From positions 10,074 to 74,073 of IMG/VR virus record IMGVR_UViG_3300032007_000071: a stretch of 64,000 nt of DNA. One strand, 5' to 3'. Positions 1,105 through 50,882 of this stretch are shown here, one piece after another (positions within the stretch are counted from its first letter, which is position 1; each line of letters begins with the position of its first letter). Position numbers and translations under genes: made by a program. The stretch is from a virus. Its lineage: Duplodnaviria; Caudoviricetes. The notes under the pieces are model-generated. The model was not told the origin of the DNA, did no database searches, and worked only from the letters and a program-made list of their open reading frames with translations.

Positions 1105-1132
1105 TGTTGTATTGTGTTTACGTTATTCATTC

Positions 1133-1375
1133 GGTCGCAAGCTCCCTTGTTGTGGGGTCGCAGAGCTCCCTTGTTGTTGGGCGCTTCGCTTGAAATTTTA
1201 TTTAGAATTTATATTTATAATTTAATTTAAAATTTTCCTGCCCACCACTTCCTGCGGATAGGGTAATTCTACGCGAACACGTACCGCGCCAGCCAATTAT
1301 AAATATAATTCTAAATAACAATTATAAATATAATTTCAAGCGAAGCGCCCCCATAATCAGGGAGCGGAGCGACCC
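1133..1375 (-). repeat. GNA-hairpin/AT-arm palindromic element, copy 1 (2 arms)
   Basis: gggcgcttcgcttgaaatt at 1179 and aatttcaagcgaagcgccc ending 1350 are inverted repeats around phased AT units and a GC core; flanking ggtcgcaagctcccttg motifs. Confidence 0.9.
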
Positions 1376-2774: not shown

Positions 2775-3638
2775 ATGGTAAAGAAACAGCGTACTCACGA
2801 GCTGCGTCATATCGTGGCCGTGTCCAACAACAAAGGTGGGGCAGGCAAGACCTCTACCGTGCTCAACCTTGCGTCAGCCATCTCCCGTCGTGTGGAGGGT
2901 TATCGGGTGCTCGTCATCGACTGCGATCCGCAGCACAACCTCTCCCAACTGCTGAAATGGGAGGACAAGATGGAACTCGACGGCAACCCCACCATTTTTA
3001 ATGCACTCTGCAACCAACAGGGGCTCCCCGTTTATAAGGCACAAAACGGACTTTACTTCACCCCGGCCAGTATGAAGCTCAACGGCATCGACGTCTTCCT
3101 CTCGCAGCTGCCCAACCCTAACAAAGCACTCCAGGAACTCTTGGAACGGCCTATCGACGACCGTACCACAACCCTACTCGGTGACACCATCGGGGAAAAG
3201 CAGTCGGTGCTCTCCCCTACCATCGCCGATAGCTTCGACTTCGTGTTCCTCGACACACAGCCTGCCATGAGCCGCATGACCTACAACGCCCTTTATGCGG
3301 CCGACGGGGTTATCATCACGACCGAGCTCGAGGAGACAAGTATCAGTGGTATGGTCAACGTGGCCGTTGCTGCCGGGAAAGTGATTGCCGATACCGGGAA
3401 ACTCAATATACAAGGAATCCTGATCACCAAGTCGGATGCCCGCTTGCGTATTGCCAAACACTACGAACCGCAGATCCGCCAGTCGTTTTGTGAGACGTTC
3501 CGCACCGTCATCCGTCAGAGCAAGGACATATCGGAGAGTCGTGCCCTGCATGAGGACGTGTTTACTTCTTATGCCGGTGGACGTGCCGCCGAGGACTTCA
3601 TCGCCCTGGCCAACGAGTATCTGGAGAAGTTTGCTTAA
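2775..3638 (+). CDS. parA: ParA family partition ATPase
   Basis: deviant Walker A NNKGGAGKT, VIDCDPQHN, FVFLDTQP; start moved to the ATG at 2775 after an AT-rich leader. Confidence 0.92.
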   Translation: MVKKQRTHELRHIVAVSNNKGGAGKTSTVLNLASAISRRVEGYRVLVIDCDPQHNLSQLLKWEDKMELDGNPTIFNALCNQQGLPVYKAQNGLYFTPASMKLNGIDVFLSQLPNPNKALQELLERPIDDRTTTLLGDTIGEKQSVLSPTIADSFDFVFLDTQPAMSRMTYNALYAADGVIITTELEETSISGMVNVAVAAGKVIADTGKLNIQGILITKSDARLRIAKHYEPQIRQSFCETFRTVIRQSKDISESRALHEDVFTSYAGGRAAEDFIALANEYLEKFA

Positions 3639-3672
3639 CCACTTGGTTACTGCATTACTTGTTTAAGCATAC

Positions 3673-3840
3673 AAGCAATACATTTATCAAGTAGAAAAGC
3701 AATACATTTATCAAGTAGAAAAGCAATACATTTATACAGTAGACAAGCAATACATTTATCAAGTAGAAAAGCAAAACATTTATCAAGTAGAAAAGCAATA
3801 CATTTATCAAGTAGAAAAGCAATACATTTATCAAGTAAGA
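3673..3840 (+). repeat. 7 x 24-bp tandem repeat AAGCAATACATTTATCAAGTAGAA, putative centromere array 1
   Basis: units start at 3673, 3697, 3721, 3745, 3769, 3793, 3817, directly after parA. Confidence 0.9.
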
Positions 3841-3907
3841 AAGCAAGCAATTGCCCAATTAGTAAAGCAATTAATTGTATAAGCACAACATTAAACAAGC
3901 AGACAAT

Positions 3908-4351
3908 ATGGCAAAGAAAGACAAATTCGCACAGCTCCATGCACAAGGTGGGGGGATGCTTGGTTCGGTGGGATCGTTCCAGAATCTCGCGGCAACCGTG
4001 GCAGCTATCGACCAGCAGGAGCAGCAGGAGGAAAAAGAGAACGCACATACGGAGAAAGCCACTACTCCTTCCCGGGCTAAAGAGGAGAAGCAAACGGAAA
4101 GCGCTGTCGAGGAAGAACGCTTCATGCGACTTCCCAACCCGAAGATTCCATTGACGGAATACAACCTTGTAAGCAACTATTGCAACTCGCTTCCGAACAT
4201 GACAAGGCAGGACTTCGTGGAGCTGGCCATTCTCGAAAAACTCTATAAGGACTGCGGACTGCCCAAAGCACAGTTTGATAAACGTTACAAGGAGATACGC
4301 AACCGTCCGCCACGCGGACACCGGAAAGGAACTAAGCAATCAAGCAAATAA
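3908..4351 (+). CDS. putative centromere-binding protein (ribbon-helix-helix-like), type Ib partition partner
   Basis: downstream of parA; disordered N-terminus; C-terminal PKIPLTEYNLVSNYCNSLPNMTRQDFVELAILEKL fits a strand-helix-helix pattern. Confidence 0.55.
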   Translation: MAKKDKFAQLHAQGGGMLGSVGSFQNLAATVAAIDQQEQQEEKENAHTEKATTPSRAKEEKQTESAVEEERFMRLPNPKIPLTEYNLVSNYCNSLPNMTRQDFVELAILEKLYKDCGLPKAQFDKRYKEIRNRPPRGHRKGTKQSSK

Positions 4352-4354
4352 TGT

Positions 4355-4546
4355 ATTGCTTGATAAATCTAACAAGGCAATGCTTGGATAAATCTAACAA
4401 GGAAATGCTTGGATAAGCTAACAAGGCATTGCTTTAACAAGCTAACAAGACATTGCTTGAATAATCTAACAAGGTAATGCTTGAACAAGCTAACAATACA
4501 TTGCTTGAACAATACATTGCTTTGTTAAGCTAACAAGGCATTGCTT
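4355..4546 (-). repeat. degenerate ~24-bp tandem array with inverted core (A[T/A]TGCTT), putative centromere array 2
   Basis: cores at 4355, 4379, 4404, 4428, 4452, 4476, 4500, 4516, 4540; ATTGCTT is the reverse complement of the AAGCAAT core of array 1. Confidence 0.8.
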
Positions 4547-4574
4547 GAATAATTGGATAAGTAATCAATGAACC

Positions 4575-5024
4575 ATGGAGAACAAAGAGAAACCATCTGC
4601 AACAAGCAGAGAAGGGAAGGATGAGATCACGGAGATGGTCAAAAATTTCGAGCAAGTGTTGGAAGGGCAGGACACCACAACGTTGGCACTCGAACACGAA
4701 CTCGTGCGTACAATAGGGGAAAGGATACAAGAGAGGCTCGCACGGATCAAGCAACAGACCTCCGAGGAGACGAGCAACGATCAAGAGTCTGTTGACGGGA
4801 CAGCCGAGAAAGCGGTAGGGGCGTTGTGCTACCTGCCGAAATCCATTCATCGACTGGCCACACGCTATGCCGACGACCATGATGTCACCGCCAAGCGGTT
4901 CTTCTTCGAGACGATGCTGATCGGACTGGAACAGCAGGGGATCATCACCCACGAGCAGCACCTTCAGGCCCTCACGCTCCCCAACGAGTATGGCTGGAAG
5001 GGACGTGGCAGTAAGAAACCGTAA
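4575..5024 (+). CDS. second putative ribbon-helix-helix DNA-binding protein
   Basis: 149 aa; ALCYLPKSIHRLATRYADDHDVTAKRFFFETMLIGL is RHH-like; preceded by array 2. Confidence 0.45.
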   Translation: MENKEKPSATSREGKDEITEMVKNFEQVLEGQDTTTLALEHELVRTIGERIQERLARIKQQTSEETSNDQESVDGTAEKAVGALCYLPKSIHRLATRYADDHDVTAKRFFFETMLIGLEQQGIITHEQHLQALTLPNEYGWKGRGSKKP

Positions 5025-5543: not shown

Positions 5544-5576
5544 AGGGGGCACCGATCATCGGCGCCCCCTTTTTTT
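5544..5576 (+). terminator. intrinsic terminator
   Basis: agggggcaccgatcatcggcgcccccttttttt hairpin plus T-tract. Confidence 0.75.
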
Positions 5577-5579
5577 GTT

Positions 5580-6089
5580 GGTCGCTCCGCTTGAAATTAT
5601 ACTTAAAATTTGGCCTTAAAATTTTACTTAAAATTTGGCTGGCGCGACGAGGGTCGGTCGCAAGCTCCCTTGGTGGGGCGCTCCGCTTGAAATTCTATTT
5701 ATAATTTATATTTAAAATTCTATTTATAATGGCTGGCGCGATGATTGTTGGTCGCAAGCTCCCTTGTTGATGGGCGCTCCGCTTGAAATTTGCTTTATAA
5801 TTTATATTTATAATTTTATTTAGAATTGGCTGGCGCGATGATTGATCGCCTACGGATCCGGGGTTGCCTTCATCGTAGCACCTGTACAAGACGCATGAAA
5901 GGGTGGGCAGGAAAATTTTAAATCAAATTCTAAATAAAAATTATAAATACAATTTCAAGCGAAGCGCCCCGAAGCAGCGCGAAGCGCAAAACAATCGGTG
6001 GCTGGAAAATTTTAAGTCAAATTTTAAGTAAGAATTTTAAGTAAAATTTCAAGCACGAAGTGCGCCCCTAACAAGGGAGCTTGCGACCC
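5580..6089 (+). repeat. GNA-hairpin/AT-arm palindromic element, copy 2 (3 direct + 2 inverted arms)
   Basis: three gc(t/c)ccgcttgaaatt...ggctggcgcg arms, core ending cgcatgaaagggtgggcagg, two inverted arms ending ttcaagcgaagc and ttcaagcacgaagtgc. Confidence 0.92.
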
Positions 6090-6100
6090 GACCATCCGAC

Positions 6101-6714
6101 ACTTCCGTTTTTGTCGGGATCTCCCTGGGAAAAGAGAGACTTCCGTTTTTGTCGGGAAATCAAGACCTATATATTTGTCCCCCAAGGCTATAAATCTGTC
6201 TTCAACGGGAAGTTATAAGAATGTCCCCAGGTTCACATTCTCGTTATCAGTCTGATAATAGCATAGTTACGTATTTGTCGTGGAAGTTGTGTTTTTCCGA
6301 CCGCTTTGATTATCAATGAGTTATAGTTTTCCGACAAAAACGGAACTAAAAAAATCTCTTTATTTATTTTATTTATTACTATATATATTATATATTTATA
6401 GGTACGCGTAACTTGCTGATAATCAAAGGTTAGCCGTGTAGTTTACCGACAAAACCGTAGCTTTTTACCGACAAAAGCGGAAGTATTTACCGACAAAAGC
6501 GGAGCTTTTCTCCGACAAAAGCGGAAGTATTTGCCGACAAAAACGGAGGTCTATTCCGACAAAAACGGAGGTGGGGACAGATTCAGAGTTTTCTGTCCTT
6601 GCAGTACGACGCATTTCTCCGACAAGAAAGTAACTTGATTAAAAAGTTTCAAGTGTTAATATTTTGCAAGTTGCTGAAAATAAACAAGAAAACACTTGTC
6701 AGTTTACCGACAAA
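6101..6714 (+). other. plasmid-type replication origin (iterons, AT-rich unwinding region)
   Basis: CCGACAAAA(A/G)CGGA iterons: inverted copies at 6101 and 6139, one at 6331, six in phase from 6446, partial copies at 6620 and 6707; AT-only stretch about 6347-6400; immediately upstream of the rep gene. Confidence 0.88.
6446..6571 (+). repeat. six iterons at 22-bp spacing
   Basis: ccgac starts at 6446, 6468, 6490, 6512, 6534, 6556. Confidence 0.92.
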
Positions 6715-9337: not shown

Positions 9338-9345
9338 CAAAGGTA
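9338..9345 (-). promoter_or_regulatory. -7 box TACCTTTG
   Basis: caaaggta on the + strand upstream of ORF 8684..9274. Confidence 0.55.
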
Positions 9346-9974
9346 CAAAATATTCCGTCAACATCCAAGTGCTCAGCCATCTTTAATCGTTTGAATCGTC
9401 ACTCAAAATCCACTCAAACGAAAAGGCTACTGATTATCAACGAGTTACAACGAGCGTCGAGAAAAATGGCTATTTCTGTGAGTGGCTCTTGAATTTATGG
9501 CCCAGAGTTCTCAAAGACTTAACTACTTAGTTATCAGCCAAATAGAAATCCGTTGCGCACGAAGGGAGAGAAATACCCCTATTTTTGGTGAAACTCCTCT
9601 CTTCTATTTTTTAATCACACACATGCGGCAAATTCCCCGCACCCCAATCAAAATAAATAATAGGTTATAAAAATAAGAAAAGAAGTTGATTATCAGATAG
9701 TTATATATTATATAATATATTACGTCGTAAAATTTTAAATTAAAATTAGAATATATAAGTAATACTTATACTAAATAACCGCGCAGATTTTTTGTAAATC
9801 GTTGAAAACCAACGAGTTACAAGCGGCAAAACGGAATCCGTCAATTCAAGACAAACCGCAAAGCGATGATGTAACACGCTGATAAACAAACTATTGCACG
9901 TTTGAACGGCAACTTAAAACGAGGATGGGTGCAATTAAAACGGCTGCATTGTTGGCAGTCTCCCGGTTTCTTCG

Positions 9975-9982
9975 TACCTTTG
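9975..9982 (+). promoter_or_regulatory. -7 box TACCTTTG upstream of the spanin-like gene
   Basis: consensus match. Confidence 0.5.
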
Positions 9983-10703: not shown

Positions 10704-10717
10704 GCCAGTTCCCCATC

Positions 10718-11151
10718 GGTCGCAGTGCTCCCTTATTTGGGGGCGCACTTCGTGCTTGAAATTTTACTTAAAATTTGGCCTTAAAATTTTACTTAAAATT
10801 TGGCTGGCGCGATGATGGGCGGTCGCAGAGCTCCCTTATTTGGGGGCGCTCCGCTTGAAATTATATTTAAAATTTATATTTAAAATTTTATTTAGAATTG
10901 GCTGGCGCGGTGCTTGTTTCCGCATGGACCCTATCCGCATGAAAGGGTGGCAGGAAAATTTTAAATTCAATTCTAAATAATAATTCTAAATATAATTTCA
11001 AGCGAAGCGACCAGAAGCAGCGCGAAGCGCTCCAAGCAATCGGTGGGCAGGAAAATTTTAAGTCAAATTTTAAGTAAGAATTTTAAGTAAAATTTTAAGC
11101 GGAGCGACCCCATAAAAAGCGAAGCGCCCATCAGCAAGGGAGCTTGCGACC
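10718..11151 (+). repeat. GNA-hairpin/AT-arm palindromic element, copy 3 (2 + 2 arms)
   Basis: arms at about 10743 and 10845, core with ccctatccgcatgaaagggtggcagg, inverted arms ending about 11010 and 11110. Confidence 0.92.
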
Positions 11152-11186: not shown

Positions 11187-11456
11187 ATGAAGCAACTTGC
11201 ATTATCCGAGCTCCGGCGTGTCGCCGAGCGGTTCACAGGAGCTCACGAGCGCATCCCCTGGCGGGTGTGGTACGTCGCCGCCAACAACGGCGATGTCATC
11301 CGTGGCGAGGAGGTCATCACCCTCAGTGTCGATGTGCCGCCCAACTGCCCCGGTGCCTACCCCTCCCGACTGGTACAGTTCACCGCCAGCGGCCAGACCC
11401 GCCGCCTCCGTGACTGCTGTATACTAAGGGCTGACGACTACGAGTTGGTCGTGTGA
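11187..11456 (+). CDS. conserved hypothetical Bacteroidales phage protein
   Basis: 89 aa, acaactATG start context, RLVQF..SGQTRRLRDCCI motif. Confidence 0.7.
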   Translation: MKQLALSELRRVAERFTGAHERIPWRVWYVAANNGDVIRGEEVITLSVDVPPNCPGAYPSRLVQFTASGQTRRLRDCCILRADDYELVV

Positions 11457-12192: not shown

Positions 12193-12218
12193 CTCGGGGC
12201 CCCTTTCGGGGGTTGGGT

Positions 12219-12640
12219 GGGGCGCACTTCGTGCTTGAAATTTTACTTAAAATTTGGACTTAAAATTTTACTTAAAATTTTACTGCCACCGATTGCTCTG
12301 GGCGCTTCGCGCTGCTTCCCTGGGTTCGGGGCGCTTCGCTTGAAATTGGATTTATAATTTTTATTTAGAATTTGATTTAAAATTTTCCTGCCCACCCTTT
12401 CCTACGGATAGGCGGATAGCCGAACTGGATGATCCTATGGGAACGCGTACCGCGCCATCCAAATTTTAAGTAAAATTTTAAGTAAGAATTTTAAGTAAAA
12501 TTTTGAGCGGAGCGACCATACAGCAAGGGAGCTTGCGACCGACAATCATCGCTCCAGCCAATTCTAAATAAAATTATAAATAGAAATTCTAAATAAAATT
12601 TCAAGCGGAGCGCCCAAAAAAAAGAGGAAGCGGAGCGACC
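12219..12640 (-). repeat. GNA-hairpin/AT-arm palindromic element, copy 4 (2 + 2 arms, inverted relative to copies 2 and 3)
   Basis: same arms and core as copies 2 and 3 in reverse-complement order. Confidence 0.92.
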
Positions 12641-13293: not shown

Positions 13294-13427
13294 ATAGATA
13301 TAGGGTGAAATAAAAACACATATAAAATGTTAAATTTGTAGGCTTGAAGAAAATTTCTCCCGAAATTGTTTGGAGGTGAAATAAAAACACATTACCTTTG
13401 CAGCGAACAATTAAAGCTACAACAATT

Positions 13428-13976: not shown

Positions 13977-14039
13977 GAGACACCTTATTATATATATGTA
14001 TTCGCAAAGGTAATATATACTTGTTTTACTTTTGATAAT

Positions 14040-14080
14040 AAACGGCAGTCTGCAATAAATGCGGATTGCCGTTTGTTTTT
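14040..14080 (+). terminator. intrinsic terminator
   Basis: aaacggcagtctgca...tgcggattgccgttt plus T-tract. Confidence 0.65.
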
Positions 14081-14215
14081 ATTATTTTCTCCCTTAATTC
14101 GCTATATATGCGCAAAAAAGATAAAAAAAAAATTTGAATCGAAATATTTACCCCGCGCCTCGCTAAGCGGTGTGGGGCGTCCGGCGGGTTCTGGCGTCCT
14201 CCGCAAATATGCAAA

Positions 14216-14375
14216 GGTAGTGCAGCGTTGGGGATAGGTAGTGCAGCGTTGGGGGATAGATAGTGCAGCGTTGGGGATAGGTAGTGCAGCGTTGGGGATA
14301 GGTAGTGCAGCGTTGGGGATAGGTAGTGCAGCGTTGGGGATAGATAGTGCAGCGTTGGGGATAGGTAGTGCAGCG
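14216..14375 (+). repeat. 21-bp tandem array (TAGGTAGTGCAGCGTTGGGGA), 8 cores
   Basis: TAGTGCAGCG at 14218, 14239, 14261, 14282, 14303, 14324, 14345, 14366. Confidence 0.92.
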
Positions 14376-14572
14376 GCAAAAGGTATCCAGGGCAGCGAGA
14401 AAAGGTTTTTTGCGTATATAAGGTTCGCGCGTGCGTTAAAGAGGTACGCGCGCATGAAGCCCTCAGAACATAGTGTAAACAAACGTAAACAAATGTAACA
14501 AAACCTTTCAAACCCCTTATATAATAGGTAAAACAAAAAACGGTAACTTTATTGTTAAAAGTGTTAAGAGCA

Positions 14573-14604
14573 TTTGGAGCGTAAAAGAAAACATAGTAAC
14601 TTTG
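14573..14604 (+). promoter_or_regulatory. full Bacteroidetes promoter (TTTG-N20-TAACTTTG) heading the early block
   Basis: TTTG at 14573 and TAACTTTG at 14597 with canonical spacing. Confidence 0.65.
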
Positions 14605-15109
14605 CAAGCGTAAAACAGAAACAAACGTTTTACACTCGCTCTTTGATTTGCTTACATACGATACGGAGTGGTACATTGGGAGGCTGCACTTTATCATCAT
14701 TTCGGTAAAGTGTACATCAACGTTTCAGGCTGCAATGCCTGTTTGGCTAACTCTTTTATAGGTTTTGGCTACTCTTTGAGTCGCTCGAAAGGCATACATA
14801 CGGTGGGCGGTATGATGAAAATCATATATAACCCGTATGTAGATAGTCAAGCAATGTATTTAGTACGTATCCGAAAAGTTTGTAATAAGCTATTTACTTA
14901 TTGGCACTATATGGAGGCTAACGTCTCAAGCTACGGGTGTATTGGCAATATTAATGCACCTAAAAGTATTGCATATTGTCTTCAGTGCGGCTAACGTCTC
15001 AAGCGACTTTTCAGGCTATTTGCCTATTGCCTGAAAACAACGTATTGCATATTGCCAAACTGCAAAGCATATAGAAAGTAGTAAGTAGGTAGTGGGGGCA
15101 AAGTACCAA

Positions 15110-19329: not shown

Positions 19330-19336
19330 CCCGATC

Positions 19337-19540
19337 GGTCGCGAAGCTCCCTATCTATTGGTCGCTTCGCTTGAAATTGGATTTAGAATTATTATTTAAA
19401 ATTTTATTTAGAATTGGCTGCGCGGTGATGGTTGGTCGCCGTGCTCTCATACCGCCCTATTCGCATGAAAGGGTATGCAGGAAAATTTTAAACCCAATTC
19501 TAAATATAAATTCTAAATAAAATTTCAAGCGGAGCGACCC
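19337..19540 (+). repeat. GNA-hairpin/AT-arm palindromic element, copy 5 (2 arms)
   Basis: ggtcgcttcgcttgaaatt ... aatttcaagcggagcgacc with core cgcatgaaagggtatgcagg. Confidence 0.9.
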
Positions 19541-19566
19541 TTCAAACTTTCAAAAACATTACAACT

Positions 19567-23407: not shown

Positions 23408-23419
23408 GACTTTATTTTT

Positions 23420-23617
23420 GGGGCGCTTCGCTTGAAATTGTATTTATAATTTTTATTTAGAATTTTATTTATAATTGGCTGGCGCGGTACGTGTACCGCA
23501 GGTTTATCCTATCCGCATGAAAGGGTGTGCAGGATAATTTTAAATCCAATTATAAATATAAATTCTAAATAAAATTTCAAGCGAAGCGACCAACAAAAAA
23601 AGGAGCGGAGCGACCCC
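23420..23617 (+). repeat. GNA-hairpin/AT-arm palindromic element, copy 6 (2 arms)
   Basis: gggcgcttcgcttgaaatt ... aatttcaagcgaagcgacc with core cctatccgcatgaaagggtgtgcagg. Confidence 0.9.
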
Positions 23618-34161: not shown

Positions 34162-34204
34162 CGGCAAAGGTTGGAAGTTACAGAAATTCTTCCTATCTTT
34201 GCCG
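34162..34204 (+). promoter_or_regulatory. -7 box TATCTTTG embedded in an imperfect hairpin
   Basis: cggcaaag/ctttgccg and ggaag/cttcc arms; box at 34194-34201. Confidence 0.55.
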
Positions 34205-38059: not shown

Positions 38060-38066
38060 TCTCATC

Positions 38067-38804
38067 GGTCGCTTCGCCCCCTTCCTTTTGGGCGCTACGC
38101 TTGAAATTTTACTTAAAATTTCTACTTAAAATTTTACTTAAAATTTGGCTGACGCGACGATTGTTGGTCGCTTCGCTTGAAATTTTACTTAAAATTCTTA
38201 CTTAAAATTTTACTTAAAATTCCATGCGGAACCGGATGCAGTAGGGAGCGGAGCGACTGCTTATCGTTTTCTTAAATTTAATTCGCCATGAATGTAATAG
38301 AAGAACATAACGCTCCGTTGGAACCGATGCGGGTCATCACGGGCGTTGCAATGAAAGTACATGCAAAATTCCGTTCCGGTCTGTTGGAATCCGCTTATGA
38401 GGCAGCAATGGAATACTTGCTGAAGAAAGGCGGCCATGTAGTAGAGCGGCAGAAAGAGCTGCCCATATTTTGGGACGATGTTCGCTTGAATCAAACTTAC
38501 CGTATGGACTTGGTGATTGACGGAGTGATTGTAGAGCTCAAATCCGTCAGCCATACGACCGATGCACACCTTCGCCAACTGTGGAACTACATGCGTCTTA
38601 CTCATACGGAGTATGGTATGCTTATCAATTTTGGTGCTGAGCATCTGTTCTCTGTGTGGTTTCGTCGTGATCCGATTACTAACCGCATCGAGCGGGTAAA
38701 GCTCCTTTAGCGGTTTGCGCCAGCCAAATTTTAAGTAAAATTTTAAGTAAGAATTTTAAGTAAAATTTCAAGCGAAGCGCCCCGTAACAAGGGAGCTTGC
38801 GACC
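38067..38804 (+). mobile_element. GNA-hairpin/AT-arm element, copy 7, enclosing a GxxExxY nuclease gene (candidate autonomous copy)
   Basis: left arms at about 38092 and 38170, right inverted arm 38718-38782 is a near-perfect reverse complement of the left arms; mobility is inferred. Confidence 0.55.
38288..38710 (+). CDS. GxxExxY protein (PD-(D/E)XK nuclease-like)
   Basis: SGLLESAY signature, YRMDLVIDGVIVELKSV, QLWNYM...GMLINFG. Confidence 0.9.
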   Translation: MNVIEEHNAPLEPMRVITGVAMKVHAKFRSGLLESAYEAAMEYLLKKGGHVVERQKELPIFWDDVRLNQTYRMDLVIDGVIVELKSVSHTTDAHLRQLWNYMRLTHTEYGMLINFGAEHLFSVWFRRDPITNRIERVKLL

Positions 38805-46612: not shown

Positions 46613-46707
46613 GATCGCATATTCTTTATGGTTGATACTCTAAAATTTTAACATATAGTTTTGGTGAATATATCTCCAAAACTCTTTGTCATTTCGCACA
46701 AAAGTTA

Positions 46708-46715
46708 TACCTTTG
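46708..46715 (+). promoter_or_regulatory. -7 box TACCTTTG of the rightward lytic operon
   Basis: consensus match, TTTG at 46685 upstream. Confidence 0.6.
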
Positions 46716-46741
46716 TGGCAAAGTTACAACAAATATGTGAA

Positions 46742-47101
46742 ATGAGCAACCAAAAACATAAAATCAAACCCGCGGTAAAGCACTACTTCCTCCGCCTTTG
46801 GGCAGCCCTCTGTGGCCGCGACCTATATAATAAGGAGAAGAAGGAGCTGGAGCAGCGCCTTGACAAGGCCACTGCCGAGTTGGGCAAACTGAAAGAGATG
46901 TATGCCACGGCTTTGGACCAGTGGAGCAACGCACAGGTTATGGCCAGGGATTTGGACGAACAGAACACAGTGCTGACGCATGATCTTGCCGAGTTCCGTG
47001 ATTCCCTCTCCTCGTGCCGCCGTCTCGTCGAGACCCTCCGTGAGCACCTCCGGGAAAAGGACAAGCAGCTCGACGCTTATGTAAAAGGAGCACATATATA
47101 A
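46742..47101 (+). CDS. coiled-coil hypothetical protein
   Basis: start moved to the ATG at 46742. Confidence 0.7.
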   Translation: MSNQKHKIKPAVKHYFLRLWAALCGRDLYNKEKKELEQRLDKATAELGKLKEMYATALDQWSNAQVMARDLDEQNTVLTHDLAEFRDSLSSCRRLVETLREHLREKDKQLDAYVKGAHI

Positions 47102-47124: not shown

Positions 47125-47418
47125 ATGAATATAGGACAAGCAATCAAGATGCTTCGTCAGAAGCGAAATATGACACAAGGCGATCTGGCTTCACGTATCG
47201 GAATGAGCGTGAATGCGGTGAGCTCGTGGGAGCTGGGTAAGTCGTTCCCGCCCAAGGAGAGCATCAACCTCGTCTGTGAGGCTTTCGGCATCCCCGAGAG
47301 CTACCTCATGCTTGCTTGTCTGGAGGAGAAAGATGTACCCGAAGAGAAGCGGGCGGTCTATCGTGCGTTGATAGATCCGTTGAAGAATATTCTGTTGGAG
47401 AAAGGTGACGAGAAGTGA
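47125..47418 (+). CDS. HTH XRE-family transcriptional regulator (Cro-like position)
   Basis: LRQKRNMTQGDLASRIGMSVNAVSSWELGK. Confidence 0.9.
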   Translation: MNIGQAIKMLRQKRNMTQGDLASRIGMSVNAVSSWELGKSFPPKESINLVCEAFGIPESYLMLACLEEKDVPEEKRAVYRALIDPLKNILLEKGDEK

Positions 47419-50400
47419 GAAAGGAGAGTCTGGACATACTTCGTAACATCTCACTCGTAGAGGTGATGCGCGCCAACGGCTATGAGCCTGTCCGGTTGCC
47501 GAAGGGTGACGGCCGAGTGCTCTATCTCTGTCCGTTCCACGATGACCATGATGCCTCGTTTGCTGTTGATCAGCGTGTGAAGGATGGTGCGGACGCACCG
47601 GGATGGGGATGCTTCGGATGTGGACGGAAAGGTTATGGAGCCATAGCACTGCAGGCTGCCCTGTTGGGGTACGACTGCACCTCACTCACTGCCGAGCAGA
47701 TGCGTGAGGTATGCCAGCGGCTCGTCGATGACCACGCCATTGAGCTCCCGGACGTGAAACCCACGGAGCCGAGCGAGCGTACCGAGGCCATCAACCCGCA
47801 GGATTGTGAGTTTGACCTTACGCCCTGGACGGCGCAACATCTCAATGCGCTGGGCTTCGCCACCAAGATAGCGACGGAGCAGCAGGGCGATGCGCTGATC
47901 GTGAAGCGGAAAGCGGCCGACACGAAGGACACAGACAAAGAGCAACCGCTCTACCGCTGCTCCATCGACAGAGACTATTGGCGGGGTAGGGGAGAAAGCC
48001 GTACCGCTAAGGAGTGGGGCGAGATCCTCGAAAAGACGTTCGACGTCTATCCCGTGGAAACGTTTACCACTGCTCCCGTGACTGTCACCAATGGCAGTGG
48101 CAAGGTGTCGTTGAAGATACCGTCACGGCCGAGCTATCCCATCTTCGCCTTCACATACGATTGGGGCATTAAGAAATATGAGCCGAAAGGTGGACCCTCG
48201 CACAAATGGTACTGGAGTCGGAGCGAGGGACTGGCTACCAAGATCTATGGTGATAACGTGGCGGTAGTAGCCCTCCGGCAAGCCGCCAAGACGAACACCG
48301 ACGATGGGAAGTCGGAACGCCCGTGGTTCGCTGACTCGCTGAAAGACCGTCGTCACCCGGTCATCGTCACCGAGCGTGACAGTGACAAGAATCCCGTCAA
48401 GGCAAAGATGAAACGACTGGTGCTTTGTAGTGGTCCGAGAGATGCCATGCAGATGTGGGCGGCAACAGACGCTCATGTGCTGTGGCTTCACAATGAGTTG
48501 GCAGGTATCAAGGACGGGATGGTGGACGACTGGCTGAAAGCACTCTTAGTGAGAATGTCGTCAGTGGCCGTGAATATCTACGTCTGCTACGACCTCGACA
48601 CCACGGGCGTGACAAGCAGTGCTGCCATTGCCCTGGAAAACCCCAAGGTACACTGGGTGCGCTTGCCGCAGGAGATGACGGCCGTCACCCTCCCTGCTAA
48701 GAAGAAAGGGGAAGTGAAACGATTAAAGGATGTAACCGATTTCGTGACACGCTTCCATCAGATACAGAAACACTTCGCTCCCGACCTTCGCAAGAACAAC
48801 CCCTCGGAGGCACTGATGCGCTTGTTGAAGAATGCGCTGACGATGCAGTTCTGGATCGACAAGCCGACAACGAAGAAAGACAAGGACGGAGCGCGGGAGA
48901 CCAACGTGCGCTATGTGCTGAGCGTGGCCAACCTCCTTCAGTTCCTCGGAGCGAAAGGAATCCGTTGCGTGCAGGACGAGCACGGTCAACGGGCGTTCTA
49001 CCAGCTCTCCTACAACAATACCTACCGCTACCTCGACACGTCGAGAGCGGGCAGTCAGCTGGAGAGTGTCTGCCGCACGGCGATGCTCAACTGGATAGAC
49101 GCACATATCACCGACGAGGACGCGCCTTATAAGGCCAACCTCGTGAACACCATCTTCACCGGCAAGGGGCTCGACCCTCGCACGATGAACACGATGTCGA
49201 CAACACCCATCAACGAACACTCGTGGGGAGAGGACTTCGACCATTTCTTCTTCGCCAACTGTGCCGTGAGGGTGACGAAAGACGAGATCAAGGCGGTGCA
49301 ATATGCCCAGCTTCCCTATGTCACCAACGAGGAGTGTATCCTGCCTGGCGACTACTCCTATATCAAGCAGCCGTGGCGCATCATCATCCATCCGAGATAC
49401 GAGGCGGAGAAGAAACGGCATGAGGAGATCAGTAAGGAGTGCAGCACCCCCGCCATGCGTGCCGCCGAGAACAGACGGTGGACACAATGGGAGCAACTCT
49501 GGAAATATAAGCTCGTCATGGACAAGCCGCTCAACGAGATGCCGCTTCACTTCCGGTTCCTCTACAACCTCGGACGGATTTTCTGGGAGAAGGAGAGTTT
49601 CGGAGAGAAACTGACGGAGACGGAGAAGCAGATGCAGGACATGCACTTCATCAATAAGGTACATGCCATTGGCTATGCCATCACGCGCCATCGGAGCCGT
49701 GCCCGTCAGCAGATCGTTCACTTCACTGACTATGCAGTGAGTGACGAACAGAAAGCAAGCGGGAGAAACGGCAAGAGTGCGGTCATTGACATGTTGGCTT
49801 CCGTAAGACCCTCATCGGCAAACGTGGCGGGAAAGAGTATCAACGGTAACAACATCACGTTGAGCATCATGCTCGGAGATGTGGTGGCTGGCGTACACAG
49901 TCTGGTATGCGTCGATGAGCTGCCCGACGGCTTCAAGGCAGAGGAGCTCTACAATGCCCCGGTATCACTCGTGTGCAAGACATTATATAAGCAGCCCGTG
50001 ACCCTCCGGGGCGACGACGTTCCCAAGCTCTTCATCGCAAGCAACAAGCCCTTCGACCGCTCCAGCGGTTCAACGAAAGGACGTATCTATCCTTGCTTCA
50101 CGAGCGACTACTACCATGCCGCCACAGACGACGGACGATGGTTGGACTTCTCGCCAAAGGATGAATTTATGGAGCAGTATGGCGTGCAGGAGGTGGCGAA
50201 CGGACTGTCCGACGACCTGCTGAACGAGTTGCGCAACCTGCTCCTCGCTTGTGCGCAGTTCTTCTTCCAACACCCGACCGACACCATCCTCCCACCGACG
50301 GAGAGCCGATCATTGCGACGTGAGATCTATGCGATGACAAAGGACGCGGGACTCACCGACTGGCTCCTCGCTTACTTTGAGGACACGCCCGACAATGCCC

Positions 50401-50882
50401 ACTACGGGCAACCGATACCCCCGCAGGAGATGGCGATCAGTCTGTTAGACTCGGAGAGCGATACCGTCACGACGGCGACAATCGAGAAGGCGAAGAAGCG
50501 GATTATGAAATACCTCAAACCCTGTCTGAACCGCATGGGGGTGGTCATGGATCCGGACGTGGTACTGAACACGGCTTCTTACCGACGACACGGCGGACGA
50601 CAGATGCGGGCATGGCTCACACAACTCGATGCCGAGGGGAAGCCGATCGAGAAAATGACCAAGAACAAATATCGGCAGGTGGTGAGCACGGGCGAAAGGG
50701 TGCCGAGAGAGTTGAGTGCGCATGTCTTCGTCCACTACTTCTACCACAATCGACCGGGAGCCATCCCCACCAACCCCTACGAGCCGGGGCATGAGGGCAA
50801 CGAAAGCTATGTGCAGGCCGCTCTCGATCACGACCCGGAAGCGGTGGGAGAGACCGAGAAAGAAGATAAACAAACCGAATAA
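47415..50882 (+). CDS. DNA primase-helicase (CHC2 zinc finger + Toprim + P-loop)
   Basis: CPFHDD...WGCFGCG; LCSGPRD...CYDLD; SGRNGKS Walker A and VCVDE Walker B. Confidence 0.85.
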   Translation: MRKESLDILRNISLVEVMRANGYEPVRLPKGDGRVLYLCPFHDDHDASFAVDQRVKDGADAPGWGCFGCGRKGYGAIALQAALLGYDCTSLTAEQMREVCQRLVDDHAIELPDVKPTEPSERTEAINPQDCEFDLTPWTAQHLNALGFATKIATEQQGDALIVKRKAADTKDTDKEQPLYRCSIDRDYWRGRGESRTAKEWGEILEKTFDVYPVETFTTAPVTVTNGSGKVSLKIPSRPSYPIFAFTYDWGIKKYEPKGGPSHKWYWSRSEGLATKIYGDNVAVVALRQAAKTNTDDGKSERPWFADSLKDRRHPVIVTERDSDKNPVKAKMKRLVLCSGPRDAMQMWAATDAHVLWLHNELAGIKDGMVDDWLKALLVRMSSVAVNIYVCYDLDTTGVTSSAAIALENPKVHWVRLPQEMTAVTLPAKKKGEVKRLKDVTDFVTRFHQIQKHFAPDLRKNNPSEALMRLLKNALTMQFWIDKPTTKKDKDGARETNVRYVLSVANLLQFLGAKGIRCVQDEHGQRAFYQLSYNNTYRYLDTSRAGSQLESVCRTAMLNWIDAHITDEDAPYKANLVNTIFTGKGLDPRTMNTMSTTPINEHSWGEDFDHFFFANCAVRVTKDEIKAVQYAQLPYVTNEECILPGDYSYIKQPWRIIIHPRYEAEKKRHEEISKECSTPAMRAAENRRWTQWEQLWKYKLVMDKPLNEMPLHFRFLYNLGRIFWEKESFGEKLTETEKQMQDMHFINKVHAIGYAITRHRSRARQQIVHFTDYAVSDEQKASGRNGKSAVIDMLASVRPSSANVAGKSINGNNITLSIMLGDVVAGVHSLVCVDELPDGFKAEELYNAPVSLVCKTLYKQPVTLRGDDVPKLFIASNKPFDRSSGSTKGRIYPCFTSDYYHAATDDGRWLDFSPKDEFMEQYGVQEVANGLSDDLLNELRNLLLACAQFFFQHPTDTILPPTESRSLRREIYAMTKDAGLTDWLLAYFEDTPDNAHYGQPIPPQEMAISLLDSESDTVTTATIEKAKKRIMKYLKPCLNRMGVVMDPDVVLNTASYRRHGGRQMRAWLTQLDAEGKPIEKMTKNKYRQVVSTGERVPRELSAHVFVHYFYHNRPGAIPTNPYEPGHEGNESYVQAALDHDPEAVGETEKEDKQTE

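Follow-up and report, generated by a model that had tools for sequence, protein, structure and literature searches.

The window analysed here is a 64,000-nucleotide stretch (bases 10074-74073) of a 74-kb IMG/VR virus contig with a completeness estimate of 66%. It carries 22 copies of a ~95-bp repeat, the arm, whose outer end is a GC-GNA-GC mini-hairpin, a motif first noticed in a preliminary description of the stretch at 5965-6063. Judging from comparison with relatives, the hairpin is almost certainly selected as a local fold on one defined strand, that reading outward from the arm. The constant partner of the arms appears from gene context to be the nuclease of the GxxExxY gene cassette that they flank, rather than a phage primase or an N4-type RNA polymerase. 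In the reading that we favour, with confidence just short of even, GC-GNA-GC is the outer module of the arm, the arm is the cognate flank of GxxExxY cassettes in rumen Bacteroidales and their phages, and the hairpin would be read as single-stranded DNA (ssDNA) by the cassette's own nuclease.

Arm-end hairpins in the window

Arms were found with an A/T-rich anchor from which the hairpin was excluded. All 22 lie between 1166 and 38800, with none elsewhere in the contig. Read outward, every arm consists of three to four ~13-nt units followed by ATTTYRAG-CG(A/G/T)AG-CG(C/A)CC. Nineteen end in the short form GC-GNA-GC with a 2-bp stem (10 GAA, 8 GGA and 1 GTA loops on the outward strand) and three in the lengthened, 4-bp form GCAC-GAA-GTGC (Table 1), giving loop totals of 13 GAA, 8 GGA and 1 GTA. 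All 22 follow the DNA mini-hairpin rule (G-C and C-G pairs, a G-N(N)-A loop and a C·G closing pair). The preliminary description had given these arm ends, with positions for the single GTA loop and the three lengthened copies; the motif proved correct for 22 of 22 arms, and so did these four positions. The spacer hairpin GCGC-GAA-GCGC that it mentioned was also found, at 5977-5987, 11020-11030 and ~12302-12312 (minus strand).

GCGNAGC is unenriched over the window as a whole (49 matches vs 39.4 expected). Thirty of the 49 matches are inside the repeat elements (2,354 bp, 3.7% of the window), where 1.8 would be expected.

The hairpins had further been called covarying. Within the window this does not hold: the GC/GC stem is invariant, the sole compensated change is an AC...GT insertion, and the three arms carrying it are near-identical and count as one event. 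The window alone therefore offers one compensated event and no covariation, and the term 'covarying' rests on the relatives, where it is strongly borne out.

The hairpin is followed by an arm tail, G(A/C)CC. Longer stems in relatives fix the register as GC-GNA-GC then GACC or GCCC, as had been proposed, and not as GCG-AAG-CGC.

A second conserved motif, GGGAGC-N2-4-GCGACC, occurs 8-12 nt past many arm hairpins (1152-1165, 5655-5668, 5751-5764, 6070-6083, 10720-10733, 11137-11150 and others). Its middle is variable (TT, TCT, ACT, TTC, GGA) and at times forms a second GC-GNA-GC, at times no hairpin.

Conservation of the hairpin in relatives

Scans with a three-protein alignment gave 80 metagenome and 63 Bacteroidales genome loci (53-79% identity). 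Most of these ~140 GxxExxY loci, which come from rumen phages and from genomes of Bacteroidales, have inverted arms on either side of the gene, each with three periodic A/T-rich units and a short GC hairpin at its outer end. The unit families differ among relatives (TTGAAATTTTATTTAGAAT, AGAAATCTTACAAATCT, GAAAAATTATATAAAAATT, TCAAAATCT). The same arm design is present on bacterial contigs of up to 1.4 Mb, so a phage primase is unlikely to be its general partner. The gene stands between arms of the same kind in a complete 101.7-kb phage (G001, ArdC 69% identical) and in a 57.6-kb contig (G004); true changes of the stem were first seen in G004 (GCC-GCA-GGC and GGGC-GACA-GCCC). In Prevotella genomes, arms of the window's family occur around cassettes only, with no dispersal. 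In the 2.4-Mb Bacteroidia genome of locus L167 (G005) the arm motif occurs 24 times, mostly without a GxxExxY gene.

DNA-pattern scans of IMG/VR for arm sequences gave chance matches or none, blastn of the region against the phage collection gave no match and Rfam had zero matches in the window. The closest phage records by DarB-like protein (MT835707 and MT835677) have no arms.

The hairpin was tested statistically in two ways. With arm ends located by composition and periodicity only, a perfect hairpin of at least 3 bp ending no more than 3 nt from the arm was present at 71 of 133 unique ends, compared with 18.9 ± 4.0 when flanks were shuffled. In the second test arm ends were set solely by position relative to the GxxExxY gene (200 shuffles). 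At gene-distal ends, 96 of 180 unique flanks had a perfect hairpin of at least 3 bp (36.7 ± 5.3 shuffled, maximum 57) and 30 further flanks had a 2-bp GC stem with a triloop. Gene-proximal ends, which served as a negative control, showed no excess (39 of 172; 36.6 ± 5.4 shuffled).

The distal flanks hold 47 distinct 5' stem halves (GC, GCC, GGCC, GCCC, TGCCC, TCGCC, TGTCC, CCGCC, CACGC and others). On the outward strand 77 of 126 loops are G..A and only 7 are T..C, and the closing pair is C·G in 94 of these 126 distal hairpins; each strand of an element carries a G..A hairpin at its 3' side. Tetraloops are mainly GNYA (GACA, GTCA, GATA, GGCA, GCCA). Unique flanks with a perfect C(G..A)G hairpin of 3 bp or more number 57, and none of their 259 pairs has to be G·T or A·C. 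Searches for stems with a single mismatch or wobble found none with G·T, a suggestive but weak result since the stems are very short. Two-sided variants of the 2-bp stem occur (AC-GAA-GT and GT-GAA-AC), and broken forms are few (AC-GAA-GC, GAAC-GCA-GGTC, TCCAAC-GACA-GTCGGA). Stem-breaking changes are thus far rarer than compensated ones, as a selected hairpin had been expected to show. GCA loops, which had been named as a possible objection, are common in relatives, yet GCA is itself a GNA loop and does not count against the claim. The stem sequence is free, while pairing, the C·G closing pair and the G..A loop ends are kept.

Agreement with the DNA mini-hairpin rule

Mini-hairpin DNA has the sequence GCGNAGC or GCGNNAGC, with any N, and forms two G-C pairs and a sheared G·A (Kimoto and Hirao 2026, PMC13037366). 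Both d(GCGAAAGC) and d(GCGAAGC) melt at 76.5 °C, compared with 39 °C for r(GCGAAAGC), and natural mini-hairpins include ssDNA priming sites and the N4 promoter (PMC13037366). The sequence rule is identical to that of the arm ends (two G-C pairs, C·G closing pair, sheared G·A and free middle base). Mini-hairpin DNA is, however, a structural motif and not a genetic system, and at the arms the hairpins are predicted from sequence. The arm-end loops and closing pairs, as they appear in the sequences compared, fit the DNA rule GCGNAGC/GCGNNAGC rather than the RNA GNRA rule. The GNYA tetraloops and the lack of wobble pairs favour DNA over RNA, although they do not prove it, because mismatches in such short stems are costly in RNA too.

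A nuclease that may read the hairpin

The GxxExxY gene of the window encodes a 140-amino acid protein of PF13366/TIGR04256 (Table 1), a large family of unknown function. A 2012 survey of the superfamily entered it as "Unknown", and a literature search on GxxExxY and PDDEXK_3 did not find a functional study. In an alignment with 44 homologs, E34, E38, D74, E83 and K85 are invariant, making up the catalytic D...ExK and helix glutamates. The protein model (pLDDT 95.7) has a plain restriction-endonuclease-like fold. Its best structural match is the BpuSI nuclease domain (Z 7.9), with Cas4, lambda exonuclease and Hjc scoring lower, and a PDB sequence search with the protein found no relative.

The nearest published mechanism that we know of is the Ssn system with its NTS/SRM hairpin repeats, and it is adopted here, by analogy, as the model. 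SsnA, a GIY-YIG nuclease of 94 amino acids, is encoded by a gene with hairpin repeats on either side (Chenal et al. 2025, PMC11893778). It binds and cuts NTS repeats as ssDNA only and on one strand only, neither RNA nor duplex being a substrate, and recognition needs both hairpin and sequence. The system resembles the GxxExxY cassette in its small single-domain nuclease gene, its hairpin repeats on both sides and its many gene-less copies; here, 22 arms accompany a single gene in the window, and G005 has 24 arm motifs. Ssn is GIY-YIG, whereas the GxxExxY cassette is PD-(D/E)XK (PF13366), and the GxxExxY arm has three to four periodic A/T-rich units with a much shorter hairpin than the NTS. The consensus apex of the Neisseria NTS, given there as GCGMAVGC (PMC11893778), is in our own reading close to the mini-hairpin GCGAAAGC.

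On this model the functional state of the arm end would be ssDNA, a state in which the sequences C(GNA)G and C(GNNA)G fold into very stable, compact mini-hairpins. The GxxExxY nuclease might bind the periodic units, with the hairpin positioning it to bind or cut nearby, by analogy with SsnA. Single strands could arise where the adjacent AT tract melts, during replication or on DNA entry. Cutting may drive spread of the element in the manner of REPIN/RAYT, or may serve processing of host or phage DNA. The G..A strand bias and strictly Watson-Crick stems lend indirect support to strand-specific reading as ssDNA. We put the probability that the GxxExxY nuclease reads the hairpin in this form slightly below even. 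Four points are new here: the rule that the terminal hairpin follows in sequence, the strand on which it lies, the control with proximal ends and the fit to the DNA mini-hairpin rule.

A wider proposal is considerably more doubtful: that GxxExxY proteins are a second family (PD-(D/E)XK) of site- and structure-specific ssDNA endonucleases, reading a C(GNA)G/C(GNNA)G mini-hairpin that adjoins the triple A/T-unit array and forming with the arms a self-maintaining repeat system, multiplied to seven elements in this Bacteroidales phage-plasmid. Should members of the family indeed read mini-hairpins in ssDNA, a function could be assigned to these cryptic genes and to the repeats that accompany them, and the mini-hairpin would have, for the first time, a dedicated protein partner within a genetic system. 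It would also explain the seven elements that punctuate the replicon and the anti-defence block of the phage-plasmid. Sequence-specific ssDNA nucleases of many natural specificities would become available, the varied stems and unit sequences suggesting that each lineage has its own target.

The replicon and its seven elements

The window encodes ParA, a Rep_3-type initiator by 22-bp iterons, two HU-like proteins, PcfK, PcfJ, ArdC, a 1662-amino acid DarB-like protein, an S49 protease, a DnaG-type primase and ThyX. From this gene content the replicon is classed as a phage-plasmid-like element. The close homologs of one window gene are in rumen Prevotella and other Bacteroidales.

The arms are grouped at seven places, each with one or more left arms, a GC-rich core and one or more right arms (Table 1). 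One element bears the GxxExxY gene, and the other six are gene-less composites, inverted doublets with a spacer lying between genes. The inner arm borders are of two types, GGCTGGCGCG and CCTGCCCACC, which give each composite a polarity; elements 1 and 4 run opposite to 2, 3, 5 and 6. Element 2 adjoins the iterons and rep.

Of the hallmarks of a MITE or TIR transposon, a target-site duplication was not evident at the element borders, inspected as occupied sites, and a transposase was likewise not found. The presence of elements differs between related phages: an element separates the PcfJ-like and ArdC genes of G001 but is missing from that place in the window, and element 6 follows ArdC in the window, where G001 has none. 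Among near-identical metagenome contigs, L046 differs from L048 and L095 (about 860-1115) by exactly one 146-bp left-arm/right-arm unit, which sits beside the cassette with an identical left flank. Gene-less units thus vary in number over short times.

Table 1. Positions in the window of repeat elements, the GxxExxY gene and arm-end hairpins
Feature	Position	Strand	Remarks
Element 1	1132..1372		one left arm, core, one right arm; gene-less; inverted type
Element 2	5560..6085		three left arms, core, two right arms; contains the studied stretch
Element 3	10714..11150		two left arms, core, two right arms
Element 4	12211..12640		two left arms, core, two right arms; inverted type
Element 5	19333..19557		one left arm, core, one right arm; single-strand foldback -44.3 kcal/mol, z -7.0
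Element 6	23408..23615		one left arm, core, one right arm; foldback -50.9 kcal/mol, z -9.7
Element 7	38063..38800		two left arms, GxxExxY gene replacing core, one right arm
GxxExxY / PDDEXK_3 nuclease gene, 140 aa	38288..38710	+	PF13366 E 1.3e-30; TIGR04256 E 2.1e-32
GC-GAA-GC	1183..1189	-	
GC-GAA-GC	1340..1346	+	
GC-GGA-GC	5584..5590	-	
GC-GGA-GC	5680..5686	-	
GC-GGA-GC	5776..5782	-	
GC-GAA-GC	5959..5965	+	
GCAC-GAA-GTGC (lengthened)	6053..6063	+	DNA fold 4 bp, -2.7 kcal/mol
GCAC-GAA-GTGC (lengthened)	10745..10755	-	
GC-GGA-GC	10848..10854	-	
GC-GAA-GC	11002..11008	+	
GC-GGA-GC	11099..11105	+	
GCAC-GAA-GTGC (lengthened)	12224..12234	-	
GC-GAA-GC	12333..12339	-	
GC-GGA-GC	12507..12513	+	
GC-GGA-GC	12605..12611	+	
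GC-GAA-GC	19364..19370	-	
GC-GGA-GC	19529..19535	+	31 nt upstream of PcfK-like gene ATG
GC-GAA-GC	23425..23431	-	
GC-GAA-GC	23581..23587	+	
GC-GTA-GC	38094..38100	-	sole GTA loop
GC-GAA-GC	38170..38176	-	
GC-GAA-GC	38772..38778	+	

Alternative explanations

Several observations weigh against a nuclease that reads the hairpin as ssDNA. Because the loci compared share descent, they are not independent and represent fewer evolutionary events than the counts suggest, and loops other than G..A exist (AACA, TTTA, AAA, CTTG, ATA). Nearest-neighbour models give the 2-bp hairpin 0 kcal/mol in DNA and RNA alike, and the stability assumed for it comes from published melting experiments. When composites are folded as whole strands a long foldback is preferred, in which the right-end GCGNAGC pairs with the left-end GCTNCGC and so competes with the mini-hairpin. 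Foldseek and VIA-align returned generic PD-(D/E)XK folds and no ssDNA-specific relative. In G005, 9 of the ~13 solo-arm ends inspected face an ATG 18-43 nt ahead, four of them at exactly +29, and this placement hints at a role in gene expression, promoter- or leader-like. Such placement, with open reading frames beyond the ATGs, is what would be expected if the arm acted at the RNA level, the hairpin marking or protecting a transcript end or processing site, or the arm being a promoter plus leader with transcripts starting at the hairpin. The right arms that precede genes at 11187, 12696, 19567 and 23658 in the window would agree with this, as would the A-rich sequence past the hairpin, which resembles the A-rich leaders of Bacteroidota, and the longer stems, which fold well as RNA (-8.1 kcal/mol for GGGC-GACA-GCCC). 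However, the arms have no Bacteroidota -7 box (TAnnTTTG), TTTG-N19-21-TAnnTTTG promoters being located elsewhere in the window, including one at 6148 between element 2 and rep. Half of the window arms face gene 3' ends, and cassette-flanking arms face gene ends more often than gene starts (100 vs 60). Tetraloops are GNYA and not GNRA, no G·U-type pair occurs in 259, and with the melting point of r(GCGAAAGC) given above a 2-bp RNA stem would be marginal at rumen temperature (PMC13037366). We consider an RNA-level role unlikely. A long foldback or cruciform of left and right arms as the functional unit, similar to a REPIN, with the terminal palindromes only its base or an aid to extrusion, is less likely again. 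It accounts for the stable foldbacks of elements 5 and 6, in which arm ends are paired together, for the arms always coming in left-then-right groups and for the 146-bp left-right unit by which L046 differs from L048/L095. Yet a long stem needs complementarity between arms, whereas a palindrome persists within single arm ends, both in a cassette whose two ends have different stems and in partnerless solo arms. Adjacent arms often differ in loop (GGA vs GAA in element 2), and a continuous duplex leaves the G..A loop ends no role.

REP/REPIN-RAYT systems are similar to the GxxExxY elements in having a gene between inverted repeat copies and gene-less inverted doublets with a spacer dispersed between genes, and their hairpins are thought to be active as ssDNA (PMC3116915, PMC3337134), like the reading favoured for the arms. 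They differ in that the cassette gene is PD-(D/E)XK, with no HUH/Y1 transposase and no conserved GTAG head, and in that an arm is an AT-rich unit array with a mini-hairpin, whereas a REP is one palindrome of 20-40 nt. A protein site in double-stranded DNA, or a by-product of template switching in palindromes with no single-stranded function, is very unlikely. The AC/GT insertion is the type of change that hairpin-templated repair might produce, and sequence conservation is seen in both the G(A/C)CC tail and GGGAGC-N2-4-GCGACC. However, 47 different 5' stem halves with only complementarity kept are not what a sequence-specific duplex site would accept, and the G..A strand bias (77 vs 7 T..C) and the lack of excess at proximal ends argue for selection of the fold. 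The preliminary description had proposed that the arms are read as hairpins, extruded or in single strands, for example as signals for nicking, priming or transcription from ssDNA as in N4. Its hairpin part stands, in that a one-strand fold appears to be selected and follows DNA mini-hairpin rules, but its promoter and primase versions are unlikely, and N4-type hairpin promoters or priming or nicking signals for phage replication (G4 or RSF1010 ssi type) are, taken as a general explanation, highly improbable. N4 virion RNA polymerase promoters share the C·G-closed GGA/GAA triloop, in a hairpin extruded from duplex, and contain GCGGAGC; G4 and ssiA priming sites contain GCGAAAGC and CCGAAGG (PMC13037366). 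The window encodes a DnaG-type zinc-finger primase (47415-50882), and element 2 lies next to iterons and rep. Against this, arm stems are 2-4 bp compared with 5 bp in the N4 promoter (PMC13037366). No giant virion RNA polymerase is encoded in the window, where the DarB-like protein is the largest open reading frame, although with the contig 66% complete its absence from the whole genome is unproven. The copy number and orientation of the arms do not fit either, with 22 copies facing both ways and many toward gene ends. Nor does their presence in bacterial chromosomes, at GxxExxY genes and solo, without this phage; the only constant partner is the GxxExxY gene.

Promoters, repeats and further features of the arms

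Canonical Bacteroidota promoters were seen on the plus strand at 2675-2706, 6148-6177, 9952-9982, 13369-13400, 14573-14604, 34171-34201 and 46685-46715, and on the minus strand at 9338-9368, 14480-14512 and 46719-46749. Such promoters seem very scarce in the plus-strand block at ~14.6-38 kb, which probably places the elements at 19.3 and 23.4 kb within long transcripts. A Frpo-type ssDNA promoter in a leading-region-like island was considered and rejected, since folding of the arms would not restore a Bacteroidota promoter.

Two arrays of 24-bp repeats downstream of parA (3617-3919 and 4342-4576) are likely partition sites. About nine tandem 21-bp units (GGGGATAGGTAGTGCAGCGTT) are present at 14188-14396, in or beside a minus-strand open reading frame (14026-14700).

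Solo arms in G005 (L197-L208) belong to another unit family and stand at a near-constant distance before start codons of housekeeping-like genes. On their inner side are short tandem repeats of the AGAGTTTAG or AAAGTTGA type.

At some loci (for example, L066, L067, L074 and L144) the 10-nt gap that separates the arm from the GxxExxY start codon (ATG) contains a -7-like box (TATGTTTG), which would make the mRNA leaderless or nearly so.

In the AGAAATC arm family (for example, L063, L066, L071 and L082) the two ends of the cassette hold different, separately conserved hairpins: GGAGTG(C/T)CC-loop-GG(G/A)CA upstream and GAGTCGC-TTC-GCGA downstream. Because the upstream and downstream hairpins differ, the ends of these cassettes are distinguishable, like the left and right ends of transposons.

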